From NCBI GenBank assembly GCA_031409655.1, contig JANNXQ010000107.1, positions 1 to 64,000 of the forward strand: a stretch of DNA of 64,000 nt, read 5' to 3'. Below, one piece after another: positions 1 through 34,023 of the stretch (position 1 is the stretch's first letter; every line of letters begins with the position of its first letter). The notes beneath the pieces were generated by a model. That model had not been told where the DNA came from. It saw only the letters and a program-made list of their open reading frames with translations, and did no database searches. Source of the stretch: Chthoniobacteraceae bacterium. GTDB taxonomy: Bacteria; Verrucomicrobiota; Verrucomicrobiia; Chthoniobacterales; Chthoniobacteraceae. The translations under genes were made by a program, and so were the position numbers.

Positions 1-3000
1 GGACCAGCGCGCCGCGATCCCCGATTTGTTCGCTGCGGGCGTTTTCGAGCCGACCGCCGTTGTCGATGATGATGTCCGCCGTCGTGCTGGGGTTGTCATC
101 GGTGGGGATCGCGCCATTGAGCGCGGGGCTGTCCAGCACCAGCGTGCCTCCTTCCACTTGCGTAGGGCCGGTGTACGTGTTGGGGTTGGGGTTGGGGGCG
201 GCGAAAACCCAGGTACCCACTTCAGTCTTGATCACGGTGGTGGGTTCACCCGGGCTGCGGTCGGAGATGGGGGAACCCATCTTATTGTCTCCCGTGTTCG
301 ACCCTCTGAATTCCACCACAATGGCCCCGGTTCCCGCAAAGCCGAGCGGGTCGGGATTGGCGATGGTCACCGTGTTCTCCTCGGAGGCCGCGTTGGATGC
401 GATCTTTCCAGTGTTCCCGCTGTCGCCGCCGATGACGATGTGGACGGCGGTCGTGGCCGGTTGCGGCGCGTCGTATTCGATCGTCCCTTTAGAGAGGATG
501 ACGGTCGGAGCCACACTGCCCCCTGGGCCCGGCCCGAAGCTGCCCGGCGCGCCGGGATTCCCCAGGATGGGAACATTCACGGTGCCTCCCTCAATCAGCG
601 TCGGGCCGGTATAAGTATTGGCGCCCGGGAGCCGCAACTTACCAGTCCCGCGGATGACCAGCGTCTCGGTCGCCGCGCCCGAGATGACGCCCTGGATGGT
701 CATGTCGTGAGCCTGCACGTCGATGTAGTGCCGCCCGCTGACGCCGCCGGTCAGGGCGATCGAGCGATCCGGGTTGAGGATGATCCCGTTGGCTCCCGCC
801 TGGAGGGTGGCATTGCCGTGGAGGGTGGTGGTTCCGTTGTAAGCCCCGAGCGCAATGTCGTGGTCGATGTTGGTGATACCCAGGCCCACGATGGTGGCGT
901 TATGCACGTTGTTGCCGGTGAGCACATACTTGTTGGTCGCATTCGCTCCAGTCAGCCCGCCGAGGGTGAGCGCGAAGGCCCCGGAGATGTTGCCATTGAG
1001 CGTGGTCGTCGTGCCCGTGCCGTCGCTGCTGATGCCAGCATTGGCCGCGAGGATGATGTCACCGTGGAAGGTTCCGCCCTGCTCCGTGCGGATGACTCCG
1101 CGGCCCTCCGCGCCATTGCCGGCGATGGTGAACCGATTATTCCAGACGGAGCCGGCCCGGTTCACGTAAATTGATGAGAACCCAAAGCCGCCAATGACGG
1201 TGGTGATATTCCCGGTGCCGAATGGATCGGTCAAGTTGTCCGCACCGAGCGCGATTCGCCCCGCCGCGAGCGCGGTAGTGCCGCCGATGGTGATCCGCCC
1301 GGTGTAATCCTGGGTGGCCGAGGAAGTGAGTACGGTGTTGGTGTTCCCGTTGCCCGTGATCGCGAGCGGTCCACTGCCGGAGAGCATATTGGCGCTGCCG
1401 AGCGTCAGGCCGAAGCCGTTGCCCGAGATGGCGCCGCCGCCGGGGCCGATGTCGAGGCCATGGTTCGCATGAAGCGCGAAGTTGGCGCTGGGCTGGAGCG
1501 TGCCGCCATTGAGGACGATGTTATTCACCGAACCAGTGCTGCCAAAGTTGCTATCCTGACCGGCGATCAGCGTGCCCTCGTTGACGAAGGTGCCAGCGGC
1601 GTACGTATTGACCGCGAGGGCGCCCAAAGTCACCGTTCCGAGCCCAGCCTTGACCAGCGCGTTGCCGCCATTGGCGAGGATCGGAGTATTGATCGTGAGG
1701 GCGTCCGCCGACGCGTTGGTGCGGACCACGAGATCCTGACCGGAAGAAGCGCGGATGCCGGCGCCACCGCTGAGGTTCGTGTTAGTGCCGGTCTTGAGGA
1801 TGCCATCCACGGTCACCGTCTGCGGGCTGGGGACGGAGGATACCGTGAAGGCATGGGCGCCCGCGATCTTGAGCGTGGTGAAGGTGGCGTCGGTCTGCGC
1901 CGTCACGGGCGCGGTAATTTCCTGATGCGTCGCGGAGGCGAGCGTTCCGCCACCCCCAGTGCTCACGGCCCCCGCGTCGCTGCCGTAGGCGAGGGCGCGG
2001 ACGTAACCGCCCGCATCATACCACGCGAAGTTGCTGCCCCCGAAAAAGGAGCCGTGATCGATGAAGGTATTGGTCGTGACGCCGTTGAGCACGATTTTGT
2101 TGGTCGATCCATTGGTGCCGCCGCTGACGACAAAGTTTGCCGTGGCCCCCGCGGTGCGGGCGGTCAGGGAATTGAAGGTGAGGCTCGCCAAGGTTCCGCC
2201 CAAAGTGGAGTTGATGGTGGCATTGCCCGCCACCCGCGTCAGGGCACCGATCGTTCTGATGCCGGCCGTGGGGTTCAGCCCACCGCCGGAGAGAAGCTGA
2301 CCGGTGCCAATGAACGTGACGGGGGACGAGGTGGAAAGCGAGCCGCCTTCCAATAGGCCGAGCGTGCCCCCGCCAATGGTGGTCGCGCCGGTGTAGAGGT
2401 TGGCGCCACGAAACGACTGCGAGCCGTTGCCGAGCTTGGTCAGACCGCCTGACCCGGTGATGACCGCGTCCGCGAGCCCATCCAACCCGGTGGCGCCGAC
2501 GCTAATAGAGTTGGAACCCAGCGCGACGGTGCCGGTCGCAAACAGCGCACCGAGATTGTAGGTGTTGGTGCCAGCCACGGCGAAGGCCACGGTGCCCAAG
2601 CTGCCCTTGTTGAGAGTGCTGTTTTGCACTGCGTTGACGTTGTTGAGGACGAGGGTGCCGCCGGTGGCAATGTTCGTGTTGCCGGTGTGGAGGTTCGCTC
2701 CGCTGAGCGTTTGGGTTGACGCTCCCACGCTGAAGCTGCCCGCCCCACTGAGCACGCCAGTGAAATTTCCTGAGCCGGATTGAACCGCCAAGACGCTCGT
2801 GGCCACGATATTGATCCGTCCACCGCCGGCGATGGCCCCTACGTCATCGCCAAACTCGTTGATCTCCGCATACGCGTCGTTACCCACGGTGAACACGCCG
2901 GTGTTACTCAGGAAATTGCCTTGGACCATCCGAAAGCGCGCGAGATTGGCGAGGGTCAGATGGCCCTGAAACGCAGCCTGGCCGGAGAAAGGGAACTGCG

Positions 3001-3601
3001 GCCCGATCACCAGCGTGCCGGCGTTGACGGTGATCGTCCCGCCGATGGCGTTCTGCGTGCCGCCCGCCGTGGCTCCTTTCAAGGTGAGAGTGCCGAGGCC
3101 TTCCTTGACAAAACCGCTGCTGGCGTTGACGAGCGCGGCAATGGTTGCGCTGGCATTTGTGGTGATGGTCGGCGCCGCGCCGGAAAGAGTGATCGTGTTC
3201 GCCGGGACATTGGCCGCGCCCTGGAGGACGTAGTTGCCGCTGCTCCCGGGATTGAAGGTGAGATTGCCGACCGTGATGGCGCTCCCGATGGTCACCGTGC
3301 CCGCCGCGCCGTTGCTATTGCCAAAGACGGCGTCATTCGGCCCGGAGTTCGACCAGCTCGAGTTTACGGCACCATTCCACCAGACGTTGTTGCCCGCCGT
3401 GGAGTTCCAGGTGCCGGCGCCATCGGTCACGCCGGCCGTGGCGCCATTGGCATCCCATGTGTAAGTGGCCGCGTCCGCGCTGGAAGGCGGGAAGAGCGCC
3501 GAGACCAAGCAAGCCGCCGACACGGCGAGAATGCGGCGGAACCGCGGCCCACTGATGGAACCCATGAGAAGACCCGGCGTGACCTTGCAGACATTGCGCA
3601 T
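1..3601 (-). CDS. Large secreted protein with autotransporter-associated beta-strand (PATR) repeats; C-terminus runs off the left edge
   Basis: Parts translated by hand (absent from the ORF track). Starts MRNVCKVTPG..., signal-like RRILAVSAACLVSALF then ATYTWDANG. Repeated motifs: GLTKLGNGSQSFRGANLYTGATTIGGGTL, GTGKLRLPGANTYTGPTLIEGGTV, NTYTGPTQVEGGTLVL. Alternative ATG at 3565. Confidence 0.88.
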   Translation of the reverse strand, partial: MRNVCKVTPGLLMGSISGPRFRRILAVSAACLVSALFPPSSADAATYTWDANGATAGVTDGAGTWNSTAGNNVWWNGAVNSSWSNSGPNDAVFGNSNGAAGTVTIGSAITVGNLTFNPGSSGNYVLQGAANVPANTITLSGAAPTITTNASATIAALVNASSGFVKEGLGTLTLKGATAGGTQNAIGGTITVNAGTLVIGPQFPFSGQAAFQGHLTLANLARFRMVQGNFLSNTGVFTVGNDAYAEINEFGDDVGAIAGGGRINIVATSVLAVQSGSGNFTGVLSGAGSFSVGASTQTLSGANLHTGNTNIATGGTLVLNNVNAVQNSTLNKGSLGTVAFAVAGTNTYNLGALFATGTVALGSNSISVGATGLDGLADAVITGSGGLTKLGNGSQSFRGANLYTGATTIGGGTLGLLEGGSLSTSSPVTFIGTGQLLSGGGLNPTAGIRTIGALTRVAGNATINSTLGGTLASLTFNSLTARTAGATANFVVSGGTNGSTNKIVLNGVTTNTFIDHGSFFGGSNFAWYDAGGYVRALAYGSDAGAVSTGGGGTLASATHQEITAPVTAQTDATFTTLKIAGAHAFTVSSVPSPQTVTVDGILKTGTNTNLSGGAGIRASSGQDLVVRTNASADALTINTPILANGGNALVKAGLGTVTLGALAVNTYAAGTFVNEGTLIAGQDSNFGSTGSVNNIVLNGGTLQPSANFALHANHGLDIGPGGGAISGNGFGLTLGSANMLSGSGPLAITGNGNTNTVLTSSATQDYTGRITIGGTTALAAGRIALGADNLTDPFGTGNITTVIGGFGFSSIYVNRAGSVWNNRFTIAGNGAEGRGVIRTEQGGTFHGDIILAANAGISSDGTGTTTTLNGNISGAFALTLGGLTGANATNKYVLTGNNVHNATIVGLGITNIDHDIALGAYNGTTTLHGNATLQAGANGIILNPDRSIALTGGVSGRHYIDVQAHDMTIQGVISGAATETLVIRGTGKLRLPGANTYTGPTLIEGGTVNVPILGNPGAPGSFGPGPGGSVAPTVILSKGTIEYDAPQPATTAVHIVIGGDSGNTGKIASNAASEENTVTIANPDPLGFAGTGAIVVEFRGSNTGDNKMGSPISDRSPGEPTTVIKTEVGTWVFAAPNPNPNTYTGPTQVEGGTLVLDSPALNGAIPTDDNPSTTADIIIDNGGRLENARSEQIGDRGALV

Positions 3602-3739
3602 AAATCGAGGATGCCCGGAAACCGCGCGCGCCGTCTTCCCAACTAAAGTATGAAAATGCGCGGGGCGTTTGGGATTGATGCTTGGCAGCGGACGGGTGGA
3701 GATGCTTGACTCCCCACCCGGCGCGCTGGTCGCGCTGGC

Positions 3740-4918
3740 ATGAAGGTTTCGCTCACCACCAAGTACTGTGCGCCGCACCGGGCGCCGCGCCGCACGGCCG
3801 ATCTCTCGCTCCTCAATCCGAGCGTGCAGAAGCCGCTGCTCGCGCTCCAGGAGGTGATGGAGAGCCGCACGTTTTTGAAAGCGGCGGAGCGCCTCATCCA
3901 CGCCGCGATCCCATGCGATGTCGTTTATACGCTGCTGCACTACTCGATGGATCGCGGGCGCTCGATGACGGCGTGGGGCAGCGACGGCGCCGAATTTACC
4001 AACGAGTATGTGCGCGAGAGCCTGATCGGGAATCCGCTGGGCTGGGTGCTCGCGACGAAGCCCGGCGTGAAGTCATTTCCGCTCTGCGATTGTTACCCGA
4101 GCATCGAGGCGATGGAGCGCTGTCCGTTTTTCCAGCGCTTCATCCAGCGCATCGGCATTTACCACGCGACGGTGATGCCCTTCTGGCGGGAAGGTCTCGA
4201 CGGTGCCGATCTCGTGATGGGGCCGCACCGCGGCCCGCAGTGGCCGAAGTTTTCCCCCGAGGAAGTCGCGCGGATGGAGCTGATCCACCCGCACATCGAC
4301 GCGGCCTACCGGCGCGTGAACAAACTTCAGAGCCAGAGCTGCGCGCGGCGCGGGCTGGAGGAATTCGTGGCGTCGCTCCCGCTGCCCGCCTTGCTGGTGG
4401 AGTGGGATCTGCGGCTGCTCTTTCACAATGCCTCGGCGAGTGAAGCCGTCGCGCGGTGGAAAGGCACGGACCCGCACCTCAAGACTGGTCCGGACGACCT
4501 TCAACTCCCGGCGAATTTGCGCACCGAAATCGAGACGCTACGCGAAGAGTGGACCACGGCGCTGCGGGAAAGTCCCGGTCCGGCGCTCTTCCGCGAACGC
4601 ACCGTGGCGCATCCCACCGTGCCCGGCTCGCGGGCGCTGATCTCCATGACCACGCTGCGCTCCCCGCATTTCGGCAAGCCGAGTTTCGTCATCCGCTTTG
4701 AGACGCACGGCAACGGGGCCAGGGATCCTCTCGCCTCCCTCGCCAAACTTTCCGACCGCGAGCAGAAACTCGTGCGCCTGGTCTGCGACGGCCAGAGCAA
4801 TCAGGAAATCGCCGAGGCCCTCGGGCGGTGCGTAAGCACGGTAAAGAGCGAGTTGCACGCGATCTTCAAGAAGCTCGGCATCCCGAGCCGCGCCCGGCTC
4901 ATGGCGCTGCTGCGGTAG
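3740..4918 (+). CDS. LuxR-family HTH transcriptional regulator with N-terminal GAF/PAS-like sensor region
   Basis: C-terminal LSDREQKLVRLVCDGQSNQEIAEALG..STVKSELHAIFKKLGI LuxR HTH; no receiver domain recognised. Confidence 0.85.
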   Translation: MKVSLTTKYCAPHRAPRRTADLSLLNPSVQKPLLALQEVMESRTFLKAAERLIHAAIPCDVVYTLLHYSMDRGRSMTAWGSDGAEFTNEYVRESLIGNPLGWVLATKPGVKSFPLCDCYPSIEAMERCPFFQRFIQRIGIYHATVMPFWREGLDGADLVMGPHRGPQWPKFSPEEVARMELIHPHIDAAYRRVNKLQSQSCARRGLEEFVASLPLPALLVEWDLRLLFHNASASEAVARWKGTDPHLKTGPDDLQLPANLRTEIETLREEWTTALRESPGPALFRERTVAHPTVPGSRALISMTTLRSPHFGKPSFVIRFETHGNGARDPLASLAKLSDREQKLVRLVCDGQSNQEIAEALGRCVSTVKSELHAIFKKLGIPSRARLMALLR

Positions 4919-4923
4919 GGCGG

Positions 4924-7014
4924 TCAGGCGACGGCCAGCGCCACCGGGTTTTCCCCACCGTCGTCGCCGAGGGTCCGGGTGACGATCGCGGCCAGTTGAT
5001 GGGCCAGATAGGGCTTCGGCAGGTAGTTGATGTCCTCCTGGATCTTCCGGTCGCCGAAAAGTTCCGCGCTGTAACCGCTGCTGTAGATGACCGGCAGGCC
5101 GGGGCGCTCGCTCGTGATGTGGTCCGCGACGTCGCCGCCCGAAAGCCCGCCGGGCATGATCATGTCCGTGAGGAGCAGGTCGATCTCATCGTGATGCTCC
5201 TGCCAGAGAGTCAGCGCCTCGCGGCCATCGGCGGCTTCGAAGACGTGCAGGCCGCATTCCTTCAAGACGCGGCAGACGAGCGAACGCACGCTCTTGTTGT
5301 CTTCGGCGACGAGCACCGTCCGCCCGCGCGCGGATGCCTTGGACACCGCCGAAGACACGGGCGCGCTCGCGGCCACGGCATCCGTTTCCGGGAGGAAAAT
5401 GCGGAAGCTCGTGCCCTCGCCGAGCACGCTCACGAGTTCCAGCCAGCCATCGTGCTGCTTCACGATGCCGTGGACCGTGGCCAGGCCCATGCCGGTGCCC
5501 TTGCCGGGTTCCTTCGTGGTGAAGAAGGGTTCGAAAATGCGCCGCGCCGTTTTTTCATCCATGCCCGTGCCGGTGTCGCGGACGGACAGGCAGAGGAAGC
5601 GCCCCACGCGCGCCTCTGGAAAGCGGCGGACGTGTTCCGCGGTGATCTCGACCAGCTCGGTGGAGATGAAAATTTTGCCGCCCGCCGGCATCGCATCGCG
5701 CGCGTTCACGACGAGATTCACGAGCACCTGCTCGAGGTTGCAGCGATCACCGAGGATCGGCGGAAGCCCGGGCGCACTTGCCGCGTGAATTTCGACGCTC
5801 TCGGGAATCAGCCGCGTGAGCATGACCATGACCTCGGAGACCACGTCGCCCAGACTGAGGCAGGTTTTTTCCATGACGTGCTTGCGGCTGAAGATGAGGA
5901 GCTGCCGCGTGAGCTGCGCGGCGCTCTGCGAAGCTTGCTGCACGGCAGCCAGCGAGTCCGCCACCTTCGGTTCGAGATTTCCCGCTTCGAGACGCAGGCT
6001 GGTGTGACACTGGATGACGGTGAGCAGGTTATTAAAATCATGCGCCACGCCCGCAGCGAGGTGGCCCACGGCTTCCATCTTCTGCGCCTGGCGAAGCTGG
6101 TTCTCGAGCGACGTTTGCTCGGAGACATCCTGCAGCACAGCGAGGACGTGCGGGCCGGCCGCGAGGGCAAAGGGTTCGAGCCAGAGCAGACCATTCCGGC
6201 GCTCGCCACTTTTCGGGTGAAATTCGCACTCGTGCCGGAGCAGCGTTTCGCCGCGGAAAAGGCGCTCGCCCGTGGTGCGGAGGAAATCTTCCGACGTCTC
6301 GATGCCCGCTTCCCAAAAGGATTGCCCGACGATTTCCTCCGCTGTCCGCCCGGTGGCGGCGAGGAGTGCGGGATTCGCCTGGAGCACGCTTTGATCGAAG
6401 ACGCGAAGGATTGCCGTCGGCAACGGGCAGGCGTCGAAGGCGCTCGCGAGGCGCTCTTCGGAAAGGCGGAGCGCGTTCCGGCTCCGCTCAAGGTCGGCGA
6501 ATCTCGCCGCCGATTCGCGCGTCACCTGCCATTTCGCAGTCATCGCGTGCGCGAGTTGGAGCACCTCGATGGTGTCGAAGGGCTTCTTCAAAATGACCAG
6601 CCGATCGGTGTGCCCGAGCTTTTCCACGATGTCCTGCCACGAGTAGTCCGAATACGCCGTGCAGATGATCACCTGCAGCCCGGGATTCACCGACCACAGA
6701 TGCATGATCGTCTCGAGTCCATCCCAGCCGGGCGGCATCCGCACATCGACGAAGGCCAGCGCGTAGGGACGCCCTTCCGCGAGCGCCGCCTCGACTTTCG
6801 CCAGCCCCTCCTGGCCTTGATGCGCGCTTTCGAGCTCGAAGGCCACGGGCGCCGCGGACCTCACACCTTTGCCGAGCACGGCGCTCAGCAGGTCGTCGGT
6901 CGCAGTATCGTGGCGCTGTCCCGCGAGGAGGATCTTGCGGAAATCCTCATGGATCGCCGGGTTGTCGTCGATGATGAGGATGCGCTTGCGGAGGCCGTCG
7001 GGGGATGGGTTCAT
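4924..7014 (-). CDS. Hybrid sensor histidine kinase (REC-PAS-HisKA-HATPase-REC)
   Basis: RILIIDDN..FVDVRMPPGWDG receiver, H-box AGVAHDFNNLL, FEPFFTTK.PGKGTGMGL, C-terminal LLLTDMIMPG receiver; ATG 7014 overlaps the upstream TGA (ATGA). Confidence 0.92.
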   Translation of the reverse strand: MNPSPDGLRKRILIIDDNPAIHEDFRKILLAGQRHDTATDDLLSAVLGKGVRSAAPVAFELESAHQGQEGLAKVEAALAEGRPYALAFVDVRMPPGWDGLETIMHLWSVNPGLQVIICTAYSDYSWQDIVEKLGHTDRLVILKKPFDTIEVLQLAHAMTAKWQVTRESAARFADLERSRNALRLSEERLASAFDACPLPTAILRVFDQSVLQANPALLAATGRTAEEIVGQSFWEAGIETSEDFLRTTGERLFRGETLLRHECEFHPKSGERRNGLLWLEPFALAAGPHVLAVLQDVSEQTSLENQLRQAQKMEAVGHLAAGVAHDFNNLLTVIQCHTSLRLEAGNLEPKVADSLAAVQQASQSAAQLTRQLLIFSRKHVMEKTCLSLGDVVSEVMVMLTRLIPESVEIHAASAPGLPPILGDRCNLEQVLVNLVVNARDAMPAGGKIFISTELVEITAEHVRRFPEARVGRFLCLSVRDTGTGMDEKTARRIFEPFFTTKEPGKGTGMGLATVHGIVKQHDGWLELVSVLGEGTSFRIFLPETDAVAASAPVSSAVSKASARGRTVLVAEDNKSVRSLVCRVLKECGLHVFEAADGREALTLWQEHHDEIDLLLTDMIMPGGLSGGDVADHITSERPGLPVIYSSGYSAELFGDRKIQEDINYLPKPYLAHQLAAIVTRTLGDDGGENPVALAVA

Positions 7015-9890
7015 GCGGTGGCGAGTTGGCAAAAGGAGAAGCGTGGCGAGACCGCGGCGGGCGCTTCCGCGAGCGGCAGTTCGAGCGTGAAGGTGGCGCC
7101 CATCCCCGGCCCGTCGCTCTGCGCGATGAGCGTGCCGCCCATCTCATGGGCGGCGAGCGAGCTGCAGTGCAGGCCGAAGCCGTGGCCGTCTTTCTTCGTG
7201 GTGAAGCCGTGGCCAAAGATGCGGTCGAGATTTTCGGGACCGATGCCACCGCCTTCGTCGCGCACGGAGATGCTCACCCGTCCGCGCTCGCATCGCGAAA
7301 CGGCGAGCGTCAGCCGCTTGCCGCCCGCGTCGTTGTCGGCCATCGCCTGCTTGGCGTTGCGGATGAGGTTCACGAGAATTTGCAGCGTCTTGTGGCGGTC
7401 CACGATCACCGGCGGCACGTCGTCAATTTCGCGCACCACTTCGACGCCGTGCCGGCTCAGCGCGGAGTCCTGAAGTTTGAGCGCATCTTCGAGGAGTTCG
7501 GAGACGGACAGCTTTTCCGAGATGCCCGAACCAGTGGCGAGATTCTGCTGCATGGCCACGATGTCGCGGATATGGCCGACATGGGAGACCAGCGTGCCGG
7601 TCTCCGCGGAGAGCATCTCGTGCTCGGTGCGGAGTCCTTCCGCCAGCCTCCCGAGGAGTTCGGGCACCAGCCGGCCGCGCGGATCGGTAGTGAGAAAATT
7701 GGCCAGCCCGCCGTTCTGCGCGCGGATGAGCGAGACGACTTCGTTCAGCTCGGCGACGCGCGAACCACGCACGCTGTCGCCGATGATGCACGCGGCGACG
7801 TTCACGCTGTTGAGCACGTTGCCGACGTTGTGGAGCACGTTCGTCGCGACCTCGGCCATGCCGGCCTTGCGCGAGATCACGCCGATCTGCGCGTTCATCG
7901 CCGCGAGCGCCTGCTGCGCTTGTTTGCGTTCGGCGATCTCCGCGGTGAGTTCCGCGGTGCGCTCGATCACCCGCGTCTCCAGTTCCTCGTGCGCCTGGCG
8001 CAGCGCTTCCTGCGCGCGCACGCGTTCGGCCAGTTCCAGGCGCAGGCGCTCGTTGCTCTCCGTCAGTGCGCTGCGGGCTTCGGAGAGACCGGCGCGCGCG
8101 CCTTCGAGTCCGCCAGCCGCGCGACCGATCTCCTCCTGCAGCTTGTTAAAGTTCAGCGCCATGTCGCCCACTTCATCCCGCGAGTGAACGGCGACGGGCA
8201 CAAGATCGACGCGCGCTTTCGCGGCATCGAGATCACCGGCGGCCAGCGCGCGCATCGCGCGGGTGAAGTCCGCGAGCGTGCCTTTCACGAGCTTCTCGGT
8301 GGCCTGCGAAACTTCGACGGCGGAATGCGCGATCATGCCCGGCAGGATCAGGCCGACGGCAAAGGTGAGCAGCGCGACGACAACGAACGTATCCTCGAGC
8401 ACGACGATGAGCGCCTGATTGTGCTCCGGCACGTGATCGACGGCGATGAGGTAGCCGATGGCATCGAGCACGAGCACGAGCAGCATCGCGCCGGTGAGCT
8501 TGAGGTGGAGCGTGCGCGCGATGCCGGGAAGCCCGGCTTTGCGGCGATCGGAAAATTTCCGCCACGCGTAGAGCAGCGCGCCGGAGTAGGCAAAAGCGAT
8601 GCCGATCAGCACCGTCGGCAGGCCGAACTGCTGAAAGCCAAAGATCGCGGTGAGCGCCCACGCGCTGGCGGCGATCAGGCCGAGGACGATCGTGCCGCGC
8701 GGCGCGCGATACGGGCGCTCCATCGCCGGTTCGTTCCGGCGCAGGAGCCAGACCGCGATATTCGGCATGGAGATGCCGATGAGATAAGTGAGATTCGCCG
8801 CCGCGATCAGCCACACCGGATCGCCGATGAGGAGAAACGCGATGGCCATGCCCGCGGTGAGGACGGTGGCCGTCCAGGGAGCATCGGTGCGCGAGCGCTT
8901 CGCGAGAAACTCAGGCAGCAGGCCGTCCTCCGAGAGTTGCGAAAGCGTCCGCGAGGCACCCGCGAGCGCGGCGATGGTGCCGTGGAGCATGTTGAAAATC
9001 ATGAACCAGATCGCCGTCGCTTTCGCCGCCGCACCGAGCAGCGGAGCGAAGGTGGGCCCGAGTTCGAGCGCGAGTTCCTTGCCCATCGCCTCCGGCCCGA
9101 GCGCGCCGAGCCAGATGATCGGGAGAATGACGAAGTAGAGCGTCGCCAGCCCGGCACTCGCAAACATCGCGCGCGGGACATTCTTTTTCGGGTCGATCGT
9201 TTCGCCCACGTGACACGCCGCCTGTTCAAACGCCGGCGCGGCAAAGCCAATAAGATACAGCCCGGCCATGATACTCGTGAACTGCCCGAACCAGCCCGCG
9301 AAAGGCACGGTGAGTTGAAACGTGAACGCCTGCTGCCAATCCACGCTCCCGCTGTAGATCGGCACGATCGCGGAGGTGAAGGCGAGCGCCGCCGATGCTG
9401 TGGCGATCGGCATCGCGAGCCGCATCACCCATTTCACTCCGCAGAGATTGATGAAGGTGAAAAAGAGCACGATGCAGGACGCCATGAGCGGCACCGGGAA
9501 CCACGGCAGGTACCATTGATTGATCGCCGAAGAGGCGAGCAGCGCCGTCAGACCGCACGTCGGCACCCAGCCCCACCAGTAACAAACGCCGGTGAGATTC
9601 GCGAGGATCGGGCTGTAAGGCCGGAACGCTTCCGCGCACGTCGCCGCGATTCCGCCCACGCGGTTCGGATACATGAGGATCAGTTCCGTCCAGCCAGGCG
9701 TCGCCATCCAGCCCAACACCAGACCGGCGATCAGCAAAAGTACGGACGCGCTTCCCTGCCCAATGATCGCGCCTTGCCCGATGAAAAGCGCGCTGAGGAG
9801 AAAGAGGCTTTGATTGATGCCGCCCATGGCGACGGAGGTGGTGCCAAACCAACCAATGGTGCGGGGATGGATGTAAGGATTCGTTTTCAT
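7011..9890 (-). CDS. APC-family amino acid/polyamine permease fused to HAMP and histidine kinase
   Basis: About 450 aa polytopic region (GGIA..CAEAF, GETIDPKKNVPRAM, SRTLSQLSEDGLLPEFL, ERPYRAP), two more TMs, HAMP-like SRDEVGDMALNFN, H-box VLHNVGNVLNSVNV, FTTKKDGHGFGL; ATG 9890 in ATGA overlap. Confidence 0.88.
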   Translation of the reverse strand: MKTNPYIHPRTIGWFGTTSVAMGGINQSLFLLSALFIGQGAIIGQGSASVLLLIAGLVLGWMATPGWTELILMYPNRVGGIAATCAEAFRPYSPILANLTGVCYWWGWVPTCGLTALLASSAINQWYLPWFPVPLMASCIVLFFTFINLCGVKWVMRLAMPIATASAALAFTSAIVPIYSGSVDWQQAFTFQLTVPFAGWFGQFTSIMAGLYLIGFAAPAFEQAACHVGETIDPKKNVPRAMFASAGLATLYFVILPIIWLGALGPEAMGKELALELGPTFAPLLGAAAKATAIWFMIFNMLHGTIAALAGASRTLSQLSEDGLLPEFLAKRSRTDAPWTATVLTAGMAIAFLLIGDPVWLIAAANLTYLIGISMPNIAVWLLRRNEPAMERPYRAPRGTIVLGLIAASAWALTAIFGFQQFGLPTVLIGIAFAYSGALLYAWRKFSDRRKAGLPGIARTLHLKLTGAMLLVLVLDAIGYLIAVDHVPEHNQALIVVLEDTFVVVALLTFAVGLILPGMIAHSAVEVSQATEKLVKGTLADFTRAMRALAAGDLDAAKARVDLVPVAVHSRDEVGDMALNFNKLQEEIGRAAGGLEGARAGLSEARSALTESNERLRLELAERVRAQEALRQAHEELETRVIERTAELTAEIAERKQAQQALAAMNAQIGVISRKAGMAEVATNVLHNVGNVLNSVNVAACIIGDSVRGSRVAELNEVVSLIRAQNGGLANFLTTDPRGRLVPELLGRLAEGLRTEHEMLSAETGTLVSHVGHIRDIVAMQQNLATGSGISEKLSVSELLEDALKLQDSALSRHGVEVVREIDDVPPVIVDRHKTLQILVNLIRNAKQAMADNDAGGKRLTLAVSRCERGRVSISVRDEGGGIGPENLDRIFGHGFTTKKDGHGFGLHCSSLAAHEMGGTLIAQSDGPGMGATFTLELPLAEAPAAVSPRFSFCQLATA

Positions 9891-11971
9891 GGGGAAACGG
9901 CGAGAACTGCGCGTGGAGCGGGATCCGTGCTGAGAGGTGGGGGGGGAGAAATCGGCAACTCGAGGGTGAAGACCGCGCCGGCTCCGCGACCTTCGCTCTC
10001 CAGGCGGAGAACACCCCCCAATTCCCGCGCGGCGACGGCGCAACTATGCAGGCCAAATCCGTGGCCGTCCTTTTTCGTGGTGAAGCCGTGGCTGAAGACG
10101 CGCGGAAGATTTTCCGGAAGGATGCCCTCGCCATTGTCACGCACCGCGATCCGCAACTGACCCTCGTCGCCCTCGTCGATCGTGAGCGTGAGCACCTTCC
10201 GCTCCGATTCGTGCGCATCCATGGACTGCCGGGCGTTGCAGATGAGATTGACGAGGATTTGCAGGACCTTGTGCCGATCCGTCGAAATCATCGGGACGGC
10301 TGCGAAGGCGCGGACAATTTCGATACCGTGATGAGCGGACGAAGCGGTGCCCATGCGCAGCGCGTCCTCGACGAGGGTGGCCGCCTCGATTCGCTCCGTG
10401 CCGCCGGAGCGCGTGGCAAAGCTTTGCTGTGCGGCGACGATGTCGCGGATGTGCGCGACGTTTTTCACCAGCGCGCTCGCCTCGTCGCGGATCGCGCTCT
10501 GCTCGTCGCGCAATGACTCTGCAAGCCGACCGAGCAGCGCTGGCACCAGACGCCCGCGCGGGTCCGTAGTGAGGAATTCCGCAAGGCCGCCGTTGAGCGA
10601 CTGCAGGAGCGCGGCGACTTCCGCGAGGCTGCTGGCCTGCGAGGCGCGCAGCCGTTCACTGATCACGCTGGTCGAGACGTTCACGCTATTGAGAACATTG
10701 CCGACATTGTGCAGGACGCCGGTGGCGACTTCGGCCATGCCGGCCTTGCGCGAGCTCTCGACCAGCGCGCGATGCGTGGCTTCGAGTTCGTCCGCAGCGG
10801 CCTTCTCGGCGGTGATGTCGAGGAAGACTCCGCGCAGGAGCGAAGGCTCGCCTTTTTCATCGCACAGAATCGCGGCGCTTTCGCGAATCCACACCGTGCG
10901 TTCGTCCGCGGCGAGCATCCGGTAGTCGCAGCGGTAGGGGCGCTTGCCTGTCACTTTCTGCGCGCAGAAGTCGCCAGCCCATGCGTCCTCCGGATGCAGA
11001 TGGGCCTGCCAGAAAGACGGCGCCGCCATCCACTGTTCCGGCGTGCAGCCGAGGATGCGCTCGCATTGCCGACTCACAAAAGTAAAGCGGTGACCACGCA
11101 CTTCACACTCCCAGACGATGCCGTCGATGGAGTTCACGAGCGTCTCCAGCTTGCGTTTTTCGAGCTCCAGCGCCTCCTGCTGCCGCTGCCGCGCCGCGAG
11201 ATCGCGCACCGTGATCTGGTGCGCCGCCTCGCCGCTCAGTCCTGCGGCCAGCAGCAGCAGTACACCCAGGAGACCGATGGTCGTGAGCCGCGCCCGCTTC
11301 ATCGCCGCGACCCATTCGGAGGCGTGGAAGTCCACGCCGAGGATGGCGTCGATCTTCCCACCTTTGCCGCGCATCGGCACCACCGCGCTCACCCAGGTGC
11401 CCCAGCGATCGGTGTAAATTTTTTCCTCAAAGCACGGCTCTCCGCTCGCGTAGGCCCGCGCGACGGCGGGGAAGGCGTCATACACTTCGCCGATCGGCGT
11501 GCGCTGCTCCCGCTCGCCCTCGAAGCGTCCATCGTGGTCGTAGTCCGTCTCCGAATCCACCACGAGGACGGTGCGTCCGTCGGGCAGCGTGCGCATCGTG
11601 TAGATGTCGTTGATCGAAGGATTCGCGGCCAGCCAGCGTTTGAGGGCTTCGATCATTTCCAGATAACCCGCGTCGTTCGGATCGGTCCCAAGCGTCACAT
11701 TCTCGTGACTCATGCGTTCGAGTTCTCGCGCGTAAGTGGGCGCGTAACCTTCGACCATCCGCTGCATCCGCAATCGCTCGCGCTGCCCCGCCGCCTCGGT
11801 CGCAATCCATCCCGCACCGAGCAGCACGAGGAGCAGGGGCCAACCCCAGCGCGCCAGCCGCCGATGCCGCCAGAAGCAGCGGTGAAGAAACGCGAAGATC
11901 CCGAGCATCAGTCCCGCGAAAACGGCGTAATCCAACTGTGTCCCGGCGACAAAGTTGACGAGCGCGTTCAC
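9887..11971 (-). CDS. Membrane sensor histidine kinase (extracytoplasmic Cache-like domain, PAS, HisKA, HATPase)
   Basis: N-terminal TMs, YTDRWGTWVSAVVP sensor segment, PAS (FTFVSRQCERILG..HLHPED), H-box VLHNVGNVLNSVNV, G2 box GHGFGLH; GTG start. Confidence 0.88.
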   Translation of the reverse strand: MNALVNFVAGTQLDYAVFAGLMLGIFAFLHRCFWRHRRLARWGWPLLLVLLGAGWIATEAAGQRERLRMQRMVEGYAPTYARELERMSHENVTLGTDPNDAGYLEMIEALKRWLAANPSINDIYTMRTLPDGRTVLVVDSETDYDHDGRFEGEREQRTPIGEVYDAFPAVARAYASGEPCFEEKIYTDRWGTWVSAVVPMRGKGGKIDAILGVDFHASEWVAAMKRARLTTIGLLGVLLLLAAGLSGEAAHQITVRDLAARQRQQEALELEKRKLETLVNSIDGIVWECEVRGHRFTFVSRQCERILGCTPEQWMAAPSFWQAHLHPEDAWAGDFCAQKVTGKRPYRCDYRMLAADERTVWIRESAAILCDEKGEPSLLRGVFLDITAEKAAADELEATHRALVESSRKAGMAEVATGVLHNVGNVLNSVNVSTSVISERLRASQASSLAEVAALLQSLNGGLAEFLTTDPRGRLVPALLGRLAESLRDEQSAIRDEASALVKNVAHIRDIVAAQQSFATRSGGTERIEAATLVEDALRMGTASSAHHGIEIVRAFAAVPMISTDRHKVLQILVNLICNARQSMDAHESERKVLTLTIDEGDEGQLRIAVRDNGEGILPENLPRVFSHGFTTKKDGHGFGLHSCAVAARELGGVLRLESEGRGAGAVFTLELPISPPPPLSTDPAPRAVLAVSP

Positions 11972-12018: not shown

Positions 12019-13232
<1,214 letters not shown>

Positions 13233-13236
<4 letters not shown>

Positions 13237-14114
13237 GACAGCCCGGTGAAGAAGCGCAGGTAGAAAAACATGAGCGGCGCGGTGAAGAGGATGGAGTCGA
13301 TGAGATCGAGCGCACCGCCAATGCCGGGCAGGAAACGGCCCGAGTCTTTCACATCGGCGCTGCGTTTCACGATGGACTCCGCGAGATCGCCGATGATCGC
13401 CGCAAAGCCGAGCCCGAGGCCGAGGATGACCGCGTGCGTCTGATTCAGATACGAAAGCCGCGGGCCCATGATCGCGAGCAGGCCACAACCGCCGGCGGTC
13501 GAGAAAGCGAGGGCGCCGAAGAATCCCTCCCACGTCTTCTTCGGCGAGATGTGGGGGACGAGCGGGTGTTTGCCGATGAGCGAGCCGGTGACGTAGGCGC
13601 CCATGTCGCTGAACTTCGTCACGACCACGAGCCACAGCACGTAGAAATGTCCGGTGACGTGGCCCATCTCATCGCGCGGGAGGAGATAGACGATCTTCGT
13701 CACGAAAGAGAAAAGCCACGGCACGTAGAAGAGCCCGAAGACCGTGAGCGCCATGGTCTCCAGCGGGAGGATGTCGTGCTTTTTCATGAACATCTGCCGC
13801 GCGAAAATCACGAGCATGAGCATGAGCAGGGCGCCGACTTCAAAGTCGTAAGTGCGTGCCGGGCCAACCTGGCTGAGCCAGTAGAAGCTCCCGAAGCTCA
13901 GCACCGCGCCGCAGAGCATGCCGATGATCTTGAAGTTCGGCAGCTTCCGGTGATCGAGCATCGTGTAATACTCCCAGAGCCCGACGAGCCCGAGTCCGGC
14001 GATGAGCACGAAGAAGCCCGGCTCGTAACCCGCGAAGATGATCCACAGCGCGAGCGACCAGAGCGCGACCGAGCTGCCGAGGCGGCGGAGGAATACGCGG
14101 GTTTTGTCGGTCAT
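13233..14114 (-). CDS. cdsA: Phosphatidate cytidylyltransferase
   Basis: SDMGAYVTG..IGKH..ISPKKTWEG, GDLAESIVKR...KDSG..LPGIGGALDLIDS; TGA overlaps the dxr ATG. Confidence 0.93.
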
Positions 14115-14257: not shown

Positions 14258-15376
14258 TCAGAGCGTCGGCAGGACGATCTCCACGGTCGTGCCGGTGCCG
14301 ACGGTACTTTGCAGGGACATGAAGCCGCCGTGGGCTTCCACCACACTCTTCGCGATGGCCATGCCGAGGCCGGTGCCGTGCGATTTTCCGTGCGTCACAA
14401 AGGGCTCGAAAATTTTTGCCTGCAACTCGGGCGCGATGCCGCAGCCGGTGTCGCTCACGGTGAAGAGCGCGCGACCTTCGGCGACCCGCAGGCCGAGGCG
14501 CAGCAGGCCCCCGTGGGGCATCGCTTCCACGGAGTTTTTGATCACGTTCAGCAGCACCCGCACGAAGCGGCGCACATCCACCATGGCTTCGCCGCATGGG
14601 TGCAACTCGCGGACGAGGTGCACATTCTCCGGAACCATGCGCACGAGCTGCGTGTCGAGTTCCTCGAGCACGGCTTTCAGTGGGCGCCGATCCGCCTGCA
14701 GACTGCTCTGGCCGCGGGCAAAATCGAGGAGCTCCTGGACCATGTCCGTCATGCTTTCGACGGACTTTTCCATAATGTTCGTGAAGCTGCGGATCGAGGG
14801 ATCGTCGGTGCGCTTGTCGATGAGCGACGTACACATCTTCAGCGCGTGGATCGGGTTCTTCAGGTCGTGGATGATGCTATTCGCCATCGTGCCGACGAGG
14901 CTCAGGCGCTCGCTGCGCATGAGCTCGGTGATGAAGTGCGAATTGATCCCGCGCAACCGCTCGACCACCGAGCGGAGGAAATTCATGTGCAGATCGCGCG
15001 GCGCATTATCGAGGATGCGGGCAAAGGATGCGGCGTCGATGCGGCCGAGCACCGAGGACTCGGCAGCGGCGGCATTCGCGGAGCGCGGCTGGCCGTCGAT
15101 GAGCGCCATCTCGCCAAAGAAATTTCCCGGCTGGATGAAACCGAGCGTCTCCTGCTTGCCGCCGCGTCCCGCTTTGGAAATGCGGACGCTGCCTTCGACC
15201 ACGAGGTACAGACAATCGCCGGCGTCACCTTCACTGAAGATCGCGTCGTCCGCGTCGAACCGCAGCAGATCGACATCCGTGCCGATGTCGTTGATCAGCT
15301 CCGTCGGGATGCCGGCGAAGAGCTTGTTGCGCTGGAGTTGCGCGGCGTCGGGCGGGGTGTCGAGGTGGGCGATCAT
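14258..15376 (-). CDS. Cyclic-nucleotide-binding domain sensor histidine kinase (soluble)
   Basis: IFSEGDAGDCLYLVVEGSV..FFGEMALIDGQPRSANA cNMP domain; IIHDLKNP H-box; FEPFVTHGKSHGTGLGM. Confidence 0.9.
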   Translation of the reverse strand: MIAHLDTPPDAAQLQRNKLFAGIPTELINDIGTDVDLLRFDADDAIFSEGDAGDCLYLVVEGSVRISKAGRGGKQETLGFIQPGNFFGEMALIDGQPRSANAAAAESSVLGRIDAASFARILDNAPRDLHMNFLRSVVERLRGINSHFITELMRSERLSLVGTMANSIIHDLKNPIHALKMCTSLIDKRTDDPSIRSFTNIMEKSVESMTDMVQELLDFARGQSSLQADRRPLKAVLEELDTQLVRMVPENVHLVRELHPCGEAMVDVRRFVRVLLNVIKNSVEAMPHGGLLRLGLRVAEGRALFTVSDTGCGIAPELQAKIFEPFVTHGKSHGTGLGMAIAKSVVEAHGGFMSLQSTVGTGTTVEIVLPTL

Positions 15377-15390
15377 GGCGAGGTGCGAGT

Positions 15391-17751
15391 TTAGTAGGCG
15401 GGCTTGCTGCTGAATTTTGTGGTGGTAGCGCCCGCGCCGCCGAACTGGCCGCTCGTCGAGCCGTTGCCGCCGGAGCCGGAGTAGTTCGCTTTGTCGGTGT
15501 AAACTTTGGCCGCCGCGCTGCCGCCGACGGTGACGGTCTTTCCGTTGTCGATCGTCACGGTCTTGCCGGCGATGATCTTGGCACCGGCGCCGCCGAGGGT
15601 GACGTCGTCATCGAAGCGCACCTTACCATTGGTCGTGCCGCCGTAGAGCTTGAGGGTGGTGTCGGCGTTGATCGTGCCGCCGCCGATCAGGAGCTGCCCG
15701 TTCGCGCCGATCGCGCCAATCTTCACGGTGCTGCCGCGGATGTCGGCATTGCGCAGTTCGATTAGCCCGCTCGCTCCCGAGTTCTTGAGTTCCACAGTGC
15801 CGCGGTCGGCTTGAAGGCGACCGCCGTTTACACCGATTTTGCCACCGCTGGAGGTGATCCTGATCGTCCCCCCAGGGCCCGCCGCGGCGGCGTCGAGCAG
15901 CGAAAGAAGCTGGCCGCTGTTCGTGATCTCGATCGCGGGGCCGCTCGTTTTCCTGCTCGCGAGGGTGATGCTGCCGCCCCGAGCGCTGGCTACGCCTGGC
16001 GCGGAATCGGAGACTTTGATCGTGCTCGCAACCTTGATCCTGGCGGCCGAGATGGCACTGACGCTGCCGCCATTGCCGCCCGTCGGCGTGCCCGTGCCGT
16101 TTGCGCCAGAGGAAACATTGATCGGCGCACCAAAATCGACGTTGCCCGGGATCGCTTTCAAAATTGAGCCGATCCAGAGGCTGCCTCCGTTCCCGCCAGC
16201 TCCGGTCACCGCAGCGCCGCCCATCATATTCGCGCCGTTGATGCCGGTCGCGGAGAAGTCGATCACTGGTGCGTAAAGATAGGTGAGATAGCCACCAGCG
16301 TGCGGGTTCGTGGTCAGCGTGCCGTTCGCGCCCGGGAAGCTCAGGCCATTGCCCGCAGCGATGGAGGCCGCGGAGATGGTGTAGGGCAGGGTGCCCGTGA
16401 CGAAACCCCCGCTCGTCGTGATCGCGCCCACGGCCGTGAGGCCGCCAGTCACCGTGGTGAAATTGCTCACGATGAGATCGGTTGGCGAGGTGACGTTAAC
16501 CGGCGCCGGTGGAGTCGTCGGAGTGGGAGTCGGGGTCGGAGTCGGAGTCGGGGTCGGGGTCGTTGGCGTGGTCGCAGCGGTCCCACCGCTGCCGCTGTTG
16601 ACGATCGACTGGATAACACTGCTTCCAGTGCCAGTGCCGGTGCCGGTGCCGGTGCCAGATCCAGAGCCGGACGCAGACGCTTGCGGGCTGCCGCCAGAGG
16701 CGATGGTATTGACCACGTTTGAGACACTCTGCGCAGCGGTAGCACCTGCGGGCGCCGCACTGCGGGCGGAAGTCATACCGGCGCTCGCGATGCCAGCGAA
16801 GGCGCTCCGGGCATCGCTGGCCGTGGATTCGTCGGACCAGACGGCGCTCGCGGAGGCGTCGCCGCTCGACTCGAGTGCATCATCCTCCGCGGCTGTCCGG
16901 GACCGGCGATGGGTAGTGGCCTGGGCCATGAGGAGGGGCGGTGTCCCCGCACTCCCGCTGCTGGCGGCGCGCTTTTCCAGATCGGCCATCGCTTCGTCGG
17001 AGGCGGCGATGACGCTGGTGCCATTGCCGGCGATCACGAGATTGGTCGGCACGAGTCCCTTGGCCGCGATCCGGGTGCCCTGCAGGGCGATTTCCTGGTC
17101 GATGAGCGCCAGGCTCGGGAGCGGTGCCACGTTGGCCCGCGTCTTGCCTTTGAAGAGCTGCGCATCCACCAGCGCCGAAGTCTTCACGACCTTGCGGAGG
17201 TCCACATCCACCGGGTTTGGCAAGGTCTTCGCATTCGCCTCCATGATGATCATCTTGCCGGGAGTAAGCTTGATCGACTCGCCGAAGCGCCCGTTCACGG
17301 AAAGCCGCAGGCTGCCTTCGAGCACGAGCACCTTCACGTGTTTGCCTGGCTCATTCTCAATCATGATCGTGGTGCCCGTGATCGACGCCGTCACCGAGGC
17401 GGTGCGGATGCGCGCCCCGCCGCGATTTTTCGGCACCTGGAGGAGCATCGTGCCCTTTTCCAGGGAGAGATCCCGGGTGCCGGCTTTGAAGCTAAAGAAA
17501 GTCTCCGCGCCGAGGCGGGTGAGGGTGGCGTCCTGAAAAAGGAGTTCGGCCCGCGACTGGATGCCGGTGCGCACCGCGACCTGATCGCGCACGGTGTCCT
17601 GTACGACTGCCGGACGCGCGCCCTTCTGCGGATCGATGACCTTCACGTCATTGACGATCTGGTTGATCTTCGCCTCCTGGAGCGGGCCGGCGAGGAGCGT
17701 GCCGATGCTGCCGAGGAGGATGACGCCGACGAGGAGAGAGGTGTTTTTCAT
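15391..17751 (-). CDS. Secreted FecR-domain protein with S/G/T- and Pro-Thr-rich linker and Gly-rich beta-helix-like C-terminus
   Basis: Signal peptide; VRTGIQSRAELLFQDATLTRLG..ARIRTASVTASITGT..VLVLEGSL FecR-like; TPTPTPTP linker; GGNGG-rich tail. Confidence 0.8.
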   Translation of the reverse strand: MKNTSLLVGVILLGSIGTLLAGPLQEAKINQIVNDVKVIDPQKGARPAVVQDTVRDQVAVRTGIQSRAELLFQDATLTRLGAETFFSFKAGTRDLSLEKGTMLLQVPKNRGGARIRTASVTASITGTTIMIENEPGKHVKVLVLEGSLRLSVNGRFGESIKLTPGKMIIMEANAKTLPNPVDVDLRKVVKTSALVDAQLFKGKTRANVAPLPSLALIDQEIALQGTRIAAKGLVPTNLVIAGNGTSVIAASDEAMADLEKRAASSGSAGTPPLLMAQATTHRRSRTAAEDDALESSGDASASAVWSDESTASDARSAFAGIASAGMTSARSAAPAGATAAQSVSNVVNTIASGGSPQASASGSGSGTGTGTGTGTGSSVIQSIVNSGSGGTAATTPTTPTPTPTPTPTPTPTTPPAPVNVTSPTDLIVSNFTTVTGGLTAVGAITTSGGFVTGTLPYTISAASIAAGNGLSFPGANGTLTTNPHAGGYLTYLYAPVIDFSATGINGANMMGGAAVTGAGGNGGSLWIGSILKAIPGNVDFGAPINVSSGANGTGTPTGGNGGSVSAISAARIKVASTIKVSDSAPGVASARGGSITLASRKTSGPAIEITNSGQLLSLLDAAAAGPGGTIRITSSGGKIGVNGGRLQADRGTVELKNSGASGLIELRNADIRGSTVKIGAIGANGQLLIGGGTINADTTLKLYGGTTNGKVRFDDDVTLGGAGAKIIAGKTVTIDNGKTVTVGGSAAAKVYTDKANYSGSGGNGSTSGQFGGAGATTTKFSSKPAY
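16511..16660 (-). repeat. Coding hexamer repeats (Pro-Thr and Gly-Thr linkers)
   Basis: GGAGTC/GGGGTC and GCCGGT tandem units within the FecR protein. Confidence 0.85.
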
Positions 17752-18828: not shown

Positions 18829-18908
18829 GGTTGAGAGTTGAGAGCCCCGGGCAATTCGGTCGCAAAGGAGTTTTCAAAACGGCCACCTGCGGCTCTCAAC
18901 TCTCAACC
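18829..18908. repeat. Inverted heptamer repeat (GTTGAGA)2 ... (TCTCAAC)2 in a divergent intergenic region
   Basis: Perfect 18-bp IR ggttgagagttgagagcc / ggctctcaactctcaacc. Confidence 0.88.
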
Positions 18909-18951
18909 CTCCACTTCCCCCCCGGCACATTTCCCGCTGAACCGCAGCTTC

Positions 18952-21680: not shown

Positions 21681-21753
21681 CGGCACTGCGTCGTCGCTGA
21701 TTCGTCACCTGCTCGACGTTTCGGCGTCGCGGAGCAGCCGCCACCATCGCTCC

Positions 21754-22644: not shown

Positions 22645-22655
22645 CCTTCCCCCCA

Positions 22656-32528: not shown

Positions 32529-32630
32529 AGAAAACGTCGAACATCGAACACCGAACATCGAACATCGAACGGGCAGAGGCCGCAGCCCGTTCGACGTTCG
32601 ACGTTCGATGTTCGATGTTCGATGTTCCTC
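32529..32630. repeat. Inverted heptamer-repeat palindrome (AACATCG)5 ... (CGATGTT)5
   Basis: Arms 32533-32574 and 32585-32626; fills the gap between the GT2 stop and the asnB ATG. Confidence 0.95.
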
Positions 32631-33906: not shown

Positions 33907-34023
33907 GGAGAAAACATCGAACATCGAACATCGAACGTCGAACATCGAAAGGCGGATCGAGCGCGCACGGATTCCCTGCGTTCGACGTTCAGTGTTCGAC
34001 GTTCGATGTTCGATGTTTTCTCC
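33907..34023. repeat. Inverted heptamer-repeat palindrome (AACATCG)5 ... (CGATGTT)n upstream of wzm
   Basis: ggagaaaacatcgaacatcgaac ... gttcgatgttcgatgttttctcc; ends 10 nt before the wzm ATG. Confidence 0.95.

Follow-up and report, generated by a model that had tools for sequence, protein, structure and literature searches.

The transporter-kinase fusions characterised so far, CbrA and CrbS, are SLC5-STAC proteins; an earlier reading of the locus described here, made from the DNA letters alone (the sequence-only reading), had said so, and the literature agrees. CbrA, an SLC5/SSS carrier fused to a kinase, transports L-histidine and autophosphorylates. Fused transporter-receptors are regarded as rare, and a 2026 preprint on the structure of CbrA calls it 'a rare transceptor'. 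How carrier movement is converted to a signal is described as unresolved in the CbrA work. Transporter folds also serve as input in the Amt receptors: Ks-Amt5 is an Amt module with a histidine-kinase tail and Sd-Amt1 has the order Amt-HAMP-GGDEF. The locus analysed here lies in a stretch of 64,000 nucleotides (the window) from a Chthoniobacteraceae bacterium (assembly GCA_031409655.1, contig JANNXQ010000107.1, positions 1 to 64,000). One gene of the window encodes a protein of 959 residues, the APC kinase, in which an APC-like domain is followed by a transmembrane (TM) hairpin, HAMP, a helical linker and a histidine kinase. The parallel design on an APC scaffold that had been proposed for it, joined by TM hairpin and HAMP to an intact kinase, was recovered by Pfam and in a structure model. 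The protein was read as a membrane receptor kinase with a transporter-derived input domain; this reading, including the signal path and relay set out below, was given a probability of about two in three.

Reading frame and domain order

An uninterrupted frame of 959 codons occupies the minus strand, opening with the ATG at 9890 and closing with the TGA at 7013..7011. Translation confirms the single open reading frame (ORF) proposed at 7011..9890 and supplies its strand, which had not been given. The ATG at 9890 was taken as the start because it overlaps the upstream stop (ATGA) and because the homologues are 936-955 amino acids long; alignments with these cover 97-99% of the protein, with identities up to 81%. 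An antisense open frame on the plus strand (7005..10160, 1051 amino acids) spans the whole gene. GC content at third codon positions is 0.83 in the APC-kinase gene and 0.66 in this frame, which is a shadow ORF typical of 65% GC DNA. The gene and the parts of its product are as follows.

7011..9890, minus strand: APC-kinase gene, 959 amino acids; APC-like domain, TM hairpin, HAMP, helical linker, histidine kinase
8538..9857, minus strand: APC/LeuT-fold domain, residues ~12-451, 12 TM helices (Pfam, profile matches in the PDB, model, Foldseek)
8325..8510, minus strand: TM13-TM14 hairpin, residues ~461-522 (hydropathy; model helices 461-486 and 492-550)
8094..8324, minus strand: HAMP domain, residues ~523-599 (Pfam, model); AS2 is helix 573-599
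7881..8093, minus strand: proline-free helical linker (signalling helix), residues ~600-670 (drop in conservation)
7401..7880, minus strand: dimerisation and phospho-acceptor region, FixL/ZraS-like, residues ~671-830 (alignment with the FixL H-box)
7068..7394, minus strand: HATPase_c catalytic domain, residues 833-941 (Pfam E 5.5e-18; FixL and ZraS matches in the PDB)

The architecture AA_permease_2 + HAMP + HATPase_c, named beforehand as a check, was found with all three families above their Pfam cut-offs: AA_permease_2 (PF13520) at residues 12-418 (E 2.3e-31, 109.6 bits, cut-off 27), HAMP at 539-588 (30 bits, cut-off 25) and HATPase_c at 833-941 (65.9 bits, cut-off 26.4). AA_permease was also matched (E 2e-16), and no HisKA model of Pfam matched the protein even at E ≤ 1. 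The protein belongs to the APC superfamily and to the histidine-kinase superfamily. Most of what the sequence-only reading had listed was located: the polytopic APC-like region of about 450 residues (AA_permease_2, profile and Foldseek matches, 12 helices in the model), two extra TM helices (TM13 and TM14, by hydropathy and as model helices), HAMP behind these, and an intact H-box and HATPase domain, with His687 aligned to the H-box of FixL and the N, G1, F and G2 boxes in place.

Fold of the APC domain

A monomer model of residues 1-600 was built with AlphaFold2 from an alignment of 94 sequences, giving a mean predicted local distance difference test score (pLDDT) of 89.5 and a predicted template modelling score (pTM) of 0.87. 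Hydropathy and model helices agree on 12 APC helices, followed by TM13 and TM14. TM1 is broken into helices 14-25 and 27-36 (split at residue 26) and TM6 into helices 200-214 and 218-230 (split at 215-217). The model shows a complete N-terminal domain of the APC/LeuT fold, the 5+5 inverted-repeat type in which TM1 and TM6 are discontinuous.

A Foldseek search of the PDB with the model gave 301 matches at E ≤ 1e-3. The top ones were all APC-superfamily carriers (LAT1 8kdg, y+LAT1, BasC, AdiC 3ob6 and 5j4n, GkApcT and ApcT), with cation-chloride cotransporters next. Target-normalised TM-scores of the top matches were 0.73-0.81 (LAT1 8kdg 0.79; AdiC 3ob6/5j4n 0.80-0.81). The LeuT/APC fold of the N-terminus, on which the sequence-only reading had staked itself, is seen in the matches to AdiC, ApcT and LAT1. 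Sequence searches of the PDB gave the same family: the N-terminal 520 residues matched Asc-1 (E 1.8e-7) and ApcT, and a family profile matched xCT (E 1.6e-20, profile positions 10-449) as well as y+LAT1/2, GkApcT, LAT1 and Asc-1. APC signature motifs are kept in TM2 and intracellular loop 1 (W-T-E-L...P-N-R-V-G-G) and after TM6 (A-F-E...G-E-T-I-D-P-K-K-N-V-P-R-A). In the ESM Atlas the APC part matched a 52-member 'permease/HAMP' cluster with a best score of 0.85, which was used as a lead only.

Hairpin, HAMP and kinase core

Five hairpin residues, K464, D476 (in the middle of TM13), G479, Y480 and D500, are unchanged in all 74 sequences compared. In the model, TM14 (492 to ~522) runs as a single helix, 492-550, into the HAMP helix AS1, and HAMP is thus predicted to be directly continuous with the last membrane helix, as in HAMP-coupled transmembrane receptors. 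Near-invariant residues of HAMP are D572, E573, F581, N582 and Q585. Beyond it, residues 590-685 are free of proline, with Ala, Glu, Arg and Leu abundant.

His687 (codon 7830..7832) lies in the H-box 'LHNVGN'. Both the segment that bears it, VATNVLHNVGNVLNS, and the H-box helix, MAEVATNVLHNVGNVLNS, align with the H-box of FixL. The kinase boxes were located at residues 841-846 (N), 878-883 (G1), 893-898 (F) and 902-907 (G2). The kinase core matches those of FixL and ZraS in the PDB, and ordinary kinase clusters were matched by the kinase part in the ESM Atlas. By its HATPase_c boxes and by His687 in the dimerisation and histidine phosphotransfer region, the protein is a predicted two-component sensor histidine kinase.

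Distribution of the fusion

In a protein database search, 8000 candidates were scored and 1932 of them matched at E ≤ 1e-3. Each of the 120 matches listed carries an AA_permease family, and 113 of them also carry HATPase_c (table read by eye); the seven others are 733-871 amino acids long, and one of these is named 'partial'. With the permease part as query, HMMER was run against 1.84 billion representatives and gave 1566 matches at E ≤ 1e-3, 506 at 1e-10 and 233 at 1e-30. Among the best 150 listed, 45 were matched at full coverage: 43 are proteins of 801-1539 amino acids, one ends inside HAMP and one in a garbled tail. Source annotations of the relatives read merely 'amino acid permease' or 'amino acid transporter/signal transduction histidine kinase'.

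Contigs from one genome per species yielded 543 pattern matches, of which 495 were confirmed as relatives; 80 loci were kept for analysis. By phylum label, 34 rows of the module tree described below are Verrucomicrobiota and 28 are Pseudomonadota. Single or paired metagenome-assembled genomes (MAGs) are labelled Acidobacteriota, Myxococcota, Planctomycetota, Gemmatimonadota, Omnitrophota, Cyanobacteriota and Actinomycetota; these rarer labels are to be read with care because binning can mislabel MAGs. The relatives include isolates (Undibacterium arcticum, Glaciimonas immobilis and Mesorhizobium sp.), and Paraburkholderia sp. PREW-6R carries another copy on a 1.09-Mb replicon.

That a permease and a kinase gene had been joined artificially, by an assembly chimera or a frameshift, was considered at this point, since the window itself holds a damaged gene, a dxr split by an inserted hairpin element (described below). 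Against such an artefact stand the 495 relatives in other genomes, complete or isolate assemblies of the four hosts just named among them, and the conservation, which is continuous across the TM12-TM13-TM14-HAMP junction. The artefact can be given practically no credence, and the fusion, which the sequence-only reading had feared might be a chimera absent elsewhere, is real.

Conserved input module and its outputs

Mean column conservation was calculated per 40-residue block from 85 full-length relatives. It is 0.58-0.79 over residues 1-600 and 0.28-0.48 beyond, falling at residue 600 from 0.63 to 0.38. Because of this drop, the outputs are taken to be swapped at the linker (~600-670). Compared with the window protein, the first ~600 residues show 65.7-87% identity in 73 loci belonging to several phyla, and in conservation the hairpin and HAMP equal the carrier core.

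Among 78 genomic members, the APC family PF00324 was matched in 76, HATPase_c in 53, HisKA in 37, Response_reg in 31, GGDEF in 20, EAL in 20, HisKA_2/HWE in 13 and Hpt in nine. By output they were sorted into hybrid kinase-REC (31), GGDEF-EAL (20), HWE-type (13), the kinase type of the window (seven, the window included) and truncated or unclassified (seven). A HisKA_2 motif was used for this classification per locus, and its HWE total of 13 equals that of Pfam. Culturable hosts of GGDEF-EAL members are Undibacterium arcticum KCTC 42986, Glaciimonas immobilis DSM 23240 and Mesorhizobium sp. Judged from these results, the first ~600 residues (APC domain, hairpin and HAMP) are a shuffled input module, re-used before kinase and GGDEF-EAL outputs; the design is not kinase-specific, because the same module also precedes GGDEF-EAL.

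A maximum-likelihood tree of the module was calculated with 74 rows, leaving out 20 metagenome proteins. The four output classes need at least 12 changes on it (minimum possible 3; shuffled mean 32.1). The tree mostly tracks phylum, with five changes each for Verrucomicrobiota and Pseudomonadota. Modules of five Methylophilaceae/Burkholderiales MAGs (L015, L018, L020, L023 and L028) are nested in the verrucomicrobial clade with weak support (85-88), which may reflect cross-phylum transfer or mis-binning.

The fusion alone is no proof of substrate sensing, as the work on CbrA shows: its transport and kinase activities are separable and L-histidine, the transported substrate, affected no activity significantly, the kinase activity in vitro included. 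The APC domain could likewise be an autonomous active transporter, with the kinase controlled by cytoplasmic cues or partners and the fusion only co-localising or co-expressing the two. The APC core does keep its signature motifs and the complete 12-helix fold. The hairpin and HAMP, however, are always present and as conserved as the core, and the 600-residue block is re-used before unrelated outputs, as input domains behave. Nor was a stand-alone permease of the sensor clade seen among the best 150 HMMER matches, in which the short ones inspected were fragments or frameshifted pieces. The part that HAMP plays in signal transmission speaks against an autonomous transporter too, as HAMP is not known to have a role beyond passing a signal from membrane helices. 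This alternative was judged unlikely.

The operon

The APC-kinase gene is the middle one of three minus-strand genes, with ATGA overlaps at 9887-9890 and 7011-7014. The three are predicted from these overlaps to form a translationally coupled operon. Its other members are as follows.

9887..11971, minus strand: upstream partner, a 694-residue membrane sensor kinase with PAS_3 (Pfam); its stop overlaps the ATG of the APC kinase
4924..7014, minus strand: downstream partner, a REC-PAS-HisKA-HATPase-REC hybrid kinase (Pfam, Response_reg in two stretches); its ATG at 7014..7012 overlaps the TGA of the APC kinase

The upstream kinase is of the same class as the APC kinase and has a paralogous transmitter: between its core and residues 673-935 of the APC kinase the identity is 57%, and the two H-box helices are nearly identical. 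This three-gene order recurs in L001, the closest genomic relative. Its upstream gene is 35-41% identical to the upstream kinase of the window over two matched stretches, and its downstream gene is 34% identical to that of the window, with the N-terminal REC best conserved. Residues ~33-245 of the upstream kinase, a membrane/extracytoplasmic region, had no Pfam match at E ≤ 1e-3 and are 35% identical in the operon of L001; they may form an unrecognised periplasmic sensor domain.

A receiver domain is encoded in 23 of 37 close downstream genes on the same strand, 16 of which are hybrid kinases and one REC-GGDEF-EAL. By cross-tabulation, non-hybrid APC kinases are followed by a receiver-bearing gene in 18 of 20 cases. 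In Paraburkholderia sp. PREW-6R (L081, 4166-10738), a GAF-HisKA-HATPase-REC gene, an APC-HAMP-HisKA-HATPase-REC-Hpt gene and a REC-EAL gene run in the same direction; the record has two annotated features. Scans with Rfam and for promoters and terminators gave nothing informative.

Stand-alone relatives and candidate ligands

At its cut-offs, NCBIfam had no model for the APC domain. The best was TmoP, a trimethylamine N-oxide (TMAO) permease (NF053774; 131.3 and 134.4 bits, cut-off 690), and the runner-up APC model scored 65 bits. A plasmid search matched 135 records: one is a family member (64.7% identical), and the other 134 are below 60%, those listed being 23-27.5% identical. Every listed stand-alone plasmid permease is at most 27.5% identical to the sensor. 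Two of the best stand-alone matches score 839 and 829 bits and are genuine TmoP; their genes, in Paracoccus alcaliphilus and Methylobacterium sp. DM1, sit in dimethylamine-monooxygenase or methylamine clusters.

Over TM1-TM12, sensor and TmoP are 25% identical by BLASTP (E 1e-27); hhalign gave 27% identity with a probability of 99.2% over query residues 7-468. Common to both are C-x-W-x-x-W-x-P in TM3, A-F-E...C...E...P-K after TM6 and A-G-A-S-R-T-L-x-Q-x-S-x-D-G-x-L-P in TM8. TmoP differs in being a stand-alone protein of 531-541 amino acids without TM13/14 or HAMP, and in having S-G-V-P-P-L at the TM1 break, where the sensor has G-G-I-N-Q-S.

The sensor was also considered as a TmoP itself. 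This was rejected, given scores of 131-134 bits against a cut-off of 690 and loci in which no Dmm homologue lies in the flanks or elsewhere in the window.

Because the closest stand-alone relatives are TmoP, sequence kinship points, if weakly, to a ligand that is a small methylated amine or an amine oxide. The label 'amino-acid/polyamine' permease of the sequence-only reading holds only as the name of the Pfam family; the closest stand-alone relatives are TMAO permeases.

Proposed signal path

For the receptor kinase, the following path is proposed. A small solute would bind at the putative site formed by the broken TM1 and TM6 of the APC/LeuT-fold domain and would shift this domain between alternating-access states. 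The movement would pass from TM12 through a conserved cytoplasmic loop to the added TM13-TM14 hairpin, and TM14, being one helix with AS1, would carry it into HAMP. Dimerisation is expected through TM13/14 and HAMP. HAMP and the signalling helix would then set the autophosphorylation of His687, or whichever output is attached. Judging from gene order, the phosphoryl group would most likely go to the N-terminal receiver of the downstream REC-PAS-kinase-REC protein, which the upstream PAS kinase probably feeds as well. If both kinases feed this N-terminal receiver of the hybrid kinase, the genes would make up a two-input phosphorelay operon.

Several results weigh against this proposal, in addition to the behaviour of CbrA given above. 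The canonical APC TM1 motif is G-S/T-G-(I/V)-F, and M-G-G-I-N-Q-S stands in its place in the window protein. With a narrow family profile, TM1-3 drop out of the comparison with solved SLC7 transporters and positions 119-436 alone align. The model covers a single chain. Of the coiled coil in the sequence-only reading, a proline-free, helix-prone segment (residues 590-685) stands; heptad enrichment there was not significant, as 163 of 2000 shuffles scored as high in the single-register test. A tblastn search found no DmmABCD homologue in the window, nor within 8 kb of a single one of the 80 loci. The flanks of these loci have no metabolic or transport gene in common either; ORF clustering and Pfam on 76 close neighbours gave signalling partners only.

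The non-canonical TM1 motif, the divergence of TM1-3 from solved transporters and a gene neighbourhood that gives no clue to a ligand would fit an APC domain that binds none, and that acts as an anchor or dimerisation scaffold or senses a physical property of the membrane such as its potential, lipid state or pH. An anchor would not, however, stay 65.7-87% identical across phyla over 600 residues. Nor would it keep the Gly/Pro-rich breaks of TM1 and TM6, at which the polar residues N26, Q27, S28, E222 and H227 are invariant. This explanation was held to be quite improbable, and the receptor kinase with a transporter-derived input domain was retained.

A wider reading is offered tentatively and is itself rather doubtful. 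The 600-residue block would be an undescribed, phylum-spanning receptor module in which a LeuT-fold carrier has been made a ligand sensor by a two-helix lever and HAMP. It would have been exchanged among phosphorelay and cyclic di-GMP (c-di-GMP) outputs, and would perhaps inform lifestyle decisions of a solute in the environment: a methylated amine, an amine oxide or another small nitrogen compound of this kind. The unusual conservation and the repeated re-use before different outputs suggest that the signal matters generally in the ecology of soil and freshwater bacteria.

Other features of the window

A palindromic element of ~107 nucleotides, with arms of tandem heptamers (AACATCG)n, is present at 12682-12788, 32533-32626 and 33913-34017. 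There were 22 motif matches against 0.03 expected, and the hairpin has a predicted energy of -42.8 kcal/mol (z -9.65). The element has no match in Rfam. The copy at 12682-12788 lies in frame inside dxr, an essential gene of the methylerythritol phosphate (MEP) pathway on the minus strand. It brings a TAA stop and splits dxr into ORFs 12784..13635 and 12019..12696.

A cyclic-nucleotide signalling cluster comprises a histidine kinase that binds cyclic nucleotide monophosphates (14258-15376, minus), a 786-residue FecR-domain protein (15391-17751, minus) and a CHASE2 adenylate/guanylate cyclase (18838-20907, plus). A CN_hydrolase gene (21604-22644, plus; N-carbamoylputrescine amidase-like) overlaps one for agmatine deiminase (22641-23735, plus; PAD_porph). 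This pair, predicted to make putrescine from agmatine, lies 12 kb from the sensor. A protein of more than 1313 amino acids with PATR autotransporter repeats (2-3940, minus) runs past the start of the window. A long surface-polysaccharide cluster (25585-64000) holds glycosyltransferases, a Wzt ABC transporter, NeuB, a DegT aminotransferase and many methyltransferases.

Comparison with known systems

No description of an APC-HAMP-kinase or APC-HAMP-GGDEF fusion was found in literature searches with limited coverage of subscription journals, and an earlier mention is possible. The family is a large and widespread one of bacterial sensors, apparently unstudied, in which a transporter has seemingly been turned into a receptor. 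It is present in hundreds of species, culturable ones among them, and its kinase and c-di-GMP read-outs are easily assayed. Knowing the ligand would annotate hundreds of genes together.

Yeast Ssy1, and LysP with CadC, are non-fused APC-family sensors that report amino-acid availability. They signal via separate partner proteins, whereas in the window protein the HAMP-kinase part is covalently attached. The solved APC/SLC7 transporters (LAT1, y+LAT1/2, xCT, Asc-1, BasC, AdiC, GkApcT and ApcT) have the same fold, with Foldseek E values of 1e-12 to 1e-9 and target-normalised TM-scores of 0.65-0.81 over ~440-468 columns at 16-20% identity. These are transporters or exchangers that lack signalling domains, and the sensor departs from them in its divergent TM1 and its two additional helices.

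The Amt receptors Ks-Amt5 and Sd-Amt1 are most closely related to the sensor in logic. They too use a transporter fold as input to kinase and c-di-GMP outputs, with HAMP coupling in Sd-Amt1. There HAMP follows straight after the last Amt helix, whereas two extra membrane helices intervene in the window protein. The trimeric, 11-helix Amt channel has a fold unrelated to the APC/LeuT fold, and no ammonium-transporter family was among the Pfam matches of the window protein. Amt sensors have reportedly lost transport. The term transceptor, used in the sequence-only reading, covers transport as well as sensing; the APC domain of the sensor may still translocate its ligand, as a transceptor would, or may only bind it, as a pure receptor. 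If the sensor still transports, it would be the first bacterial APC carrier whose alternating-access cycle is read directly by HAMP.

With the SLC5/STAC kinases CbrA, CrbS and RpuS, the sensor shares a single-polypeptide design that puts an N-terminal LeuT-fold carrier before a two-component kinase. Pfam gave no SSF or STAC match for the window protein at E ≤ 1, and its structural matches are to APC carriers and not to SLC5. The carrier is SLC5/SSS with 13 TM helices in those kinases and APC/SLC7-like with 12+2 in the sensor; the coupler is a cytoplasmic STAC four-helix bundle in the former and a TM hairpin with HAMP in the latter. A further difference is that the APC module also precedes GGDEF-EAL outputs. 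Because carrier family and coupler both differ, the sensor was placed in neither the SLC5-STAC nor the Amt group. As a receptor it would be a second, independent LeuT-fold solution, one that uses HAMP, the best-understood transmembrane coupler.

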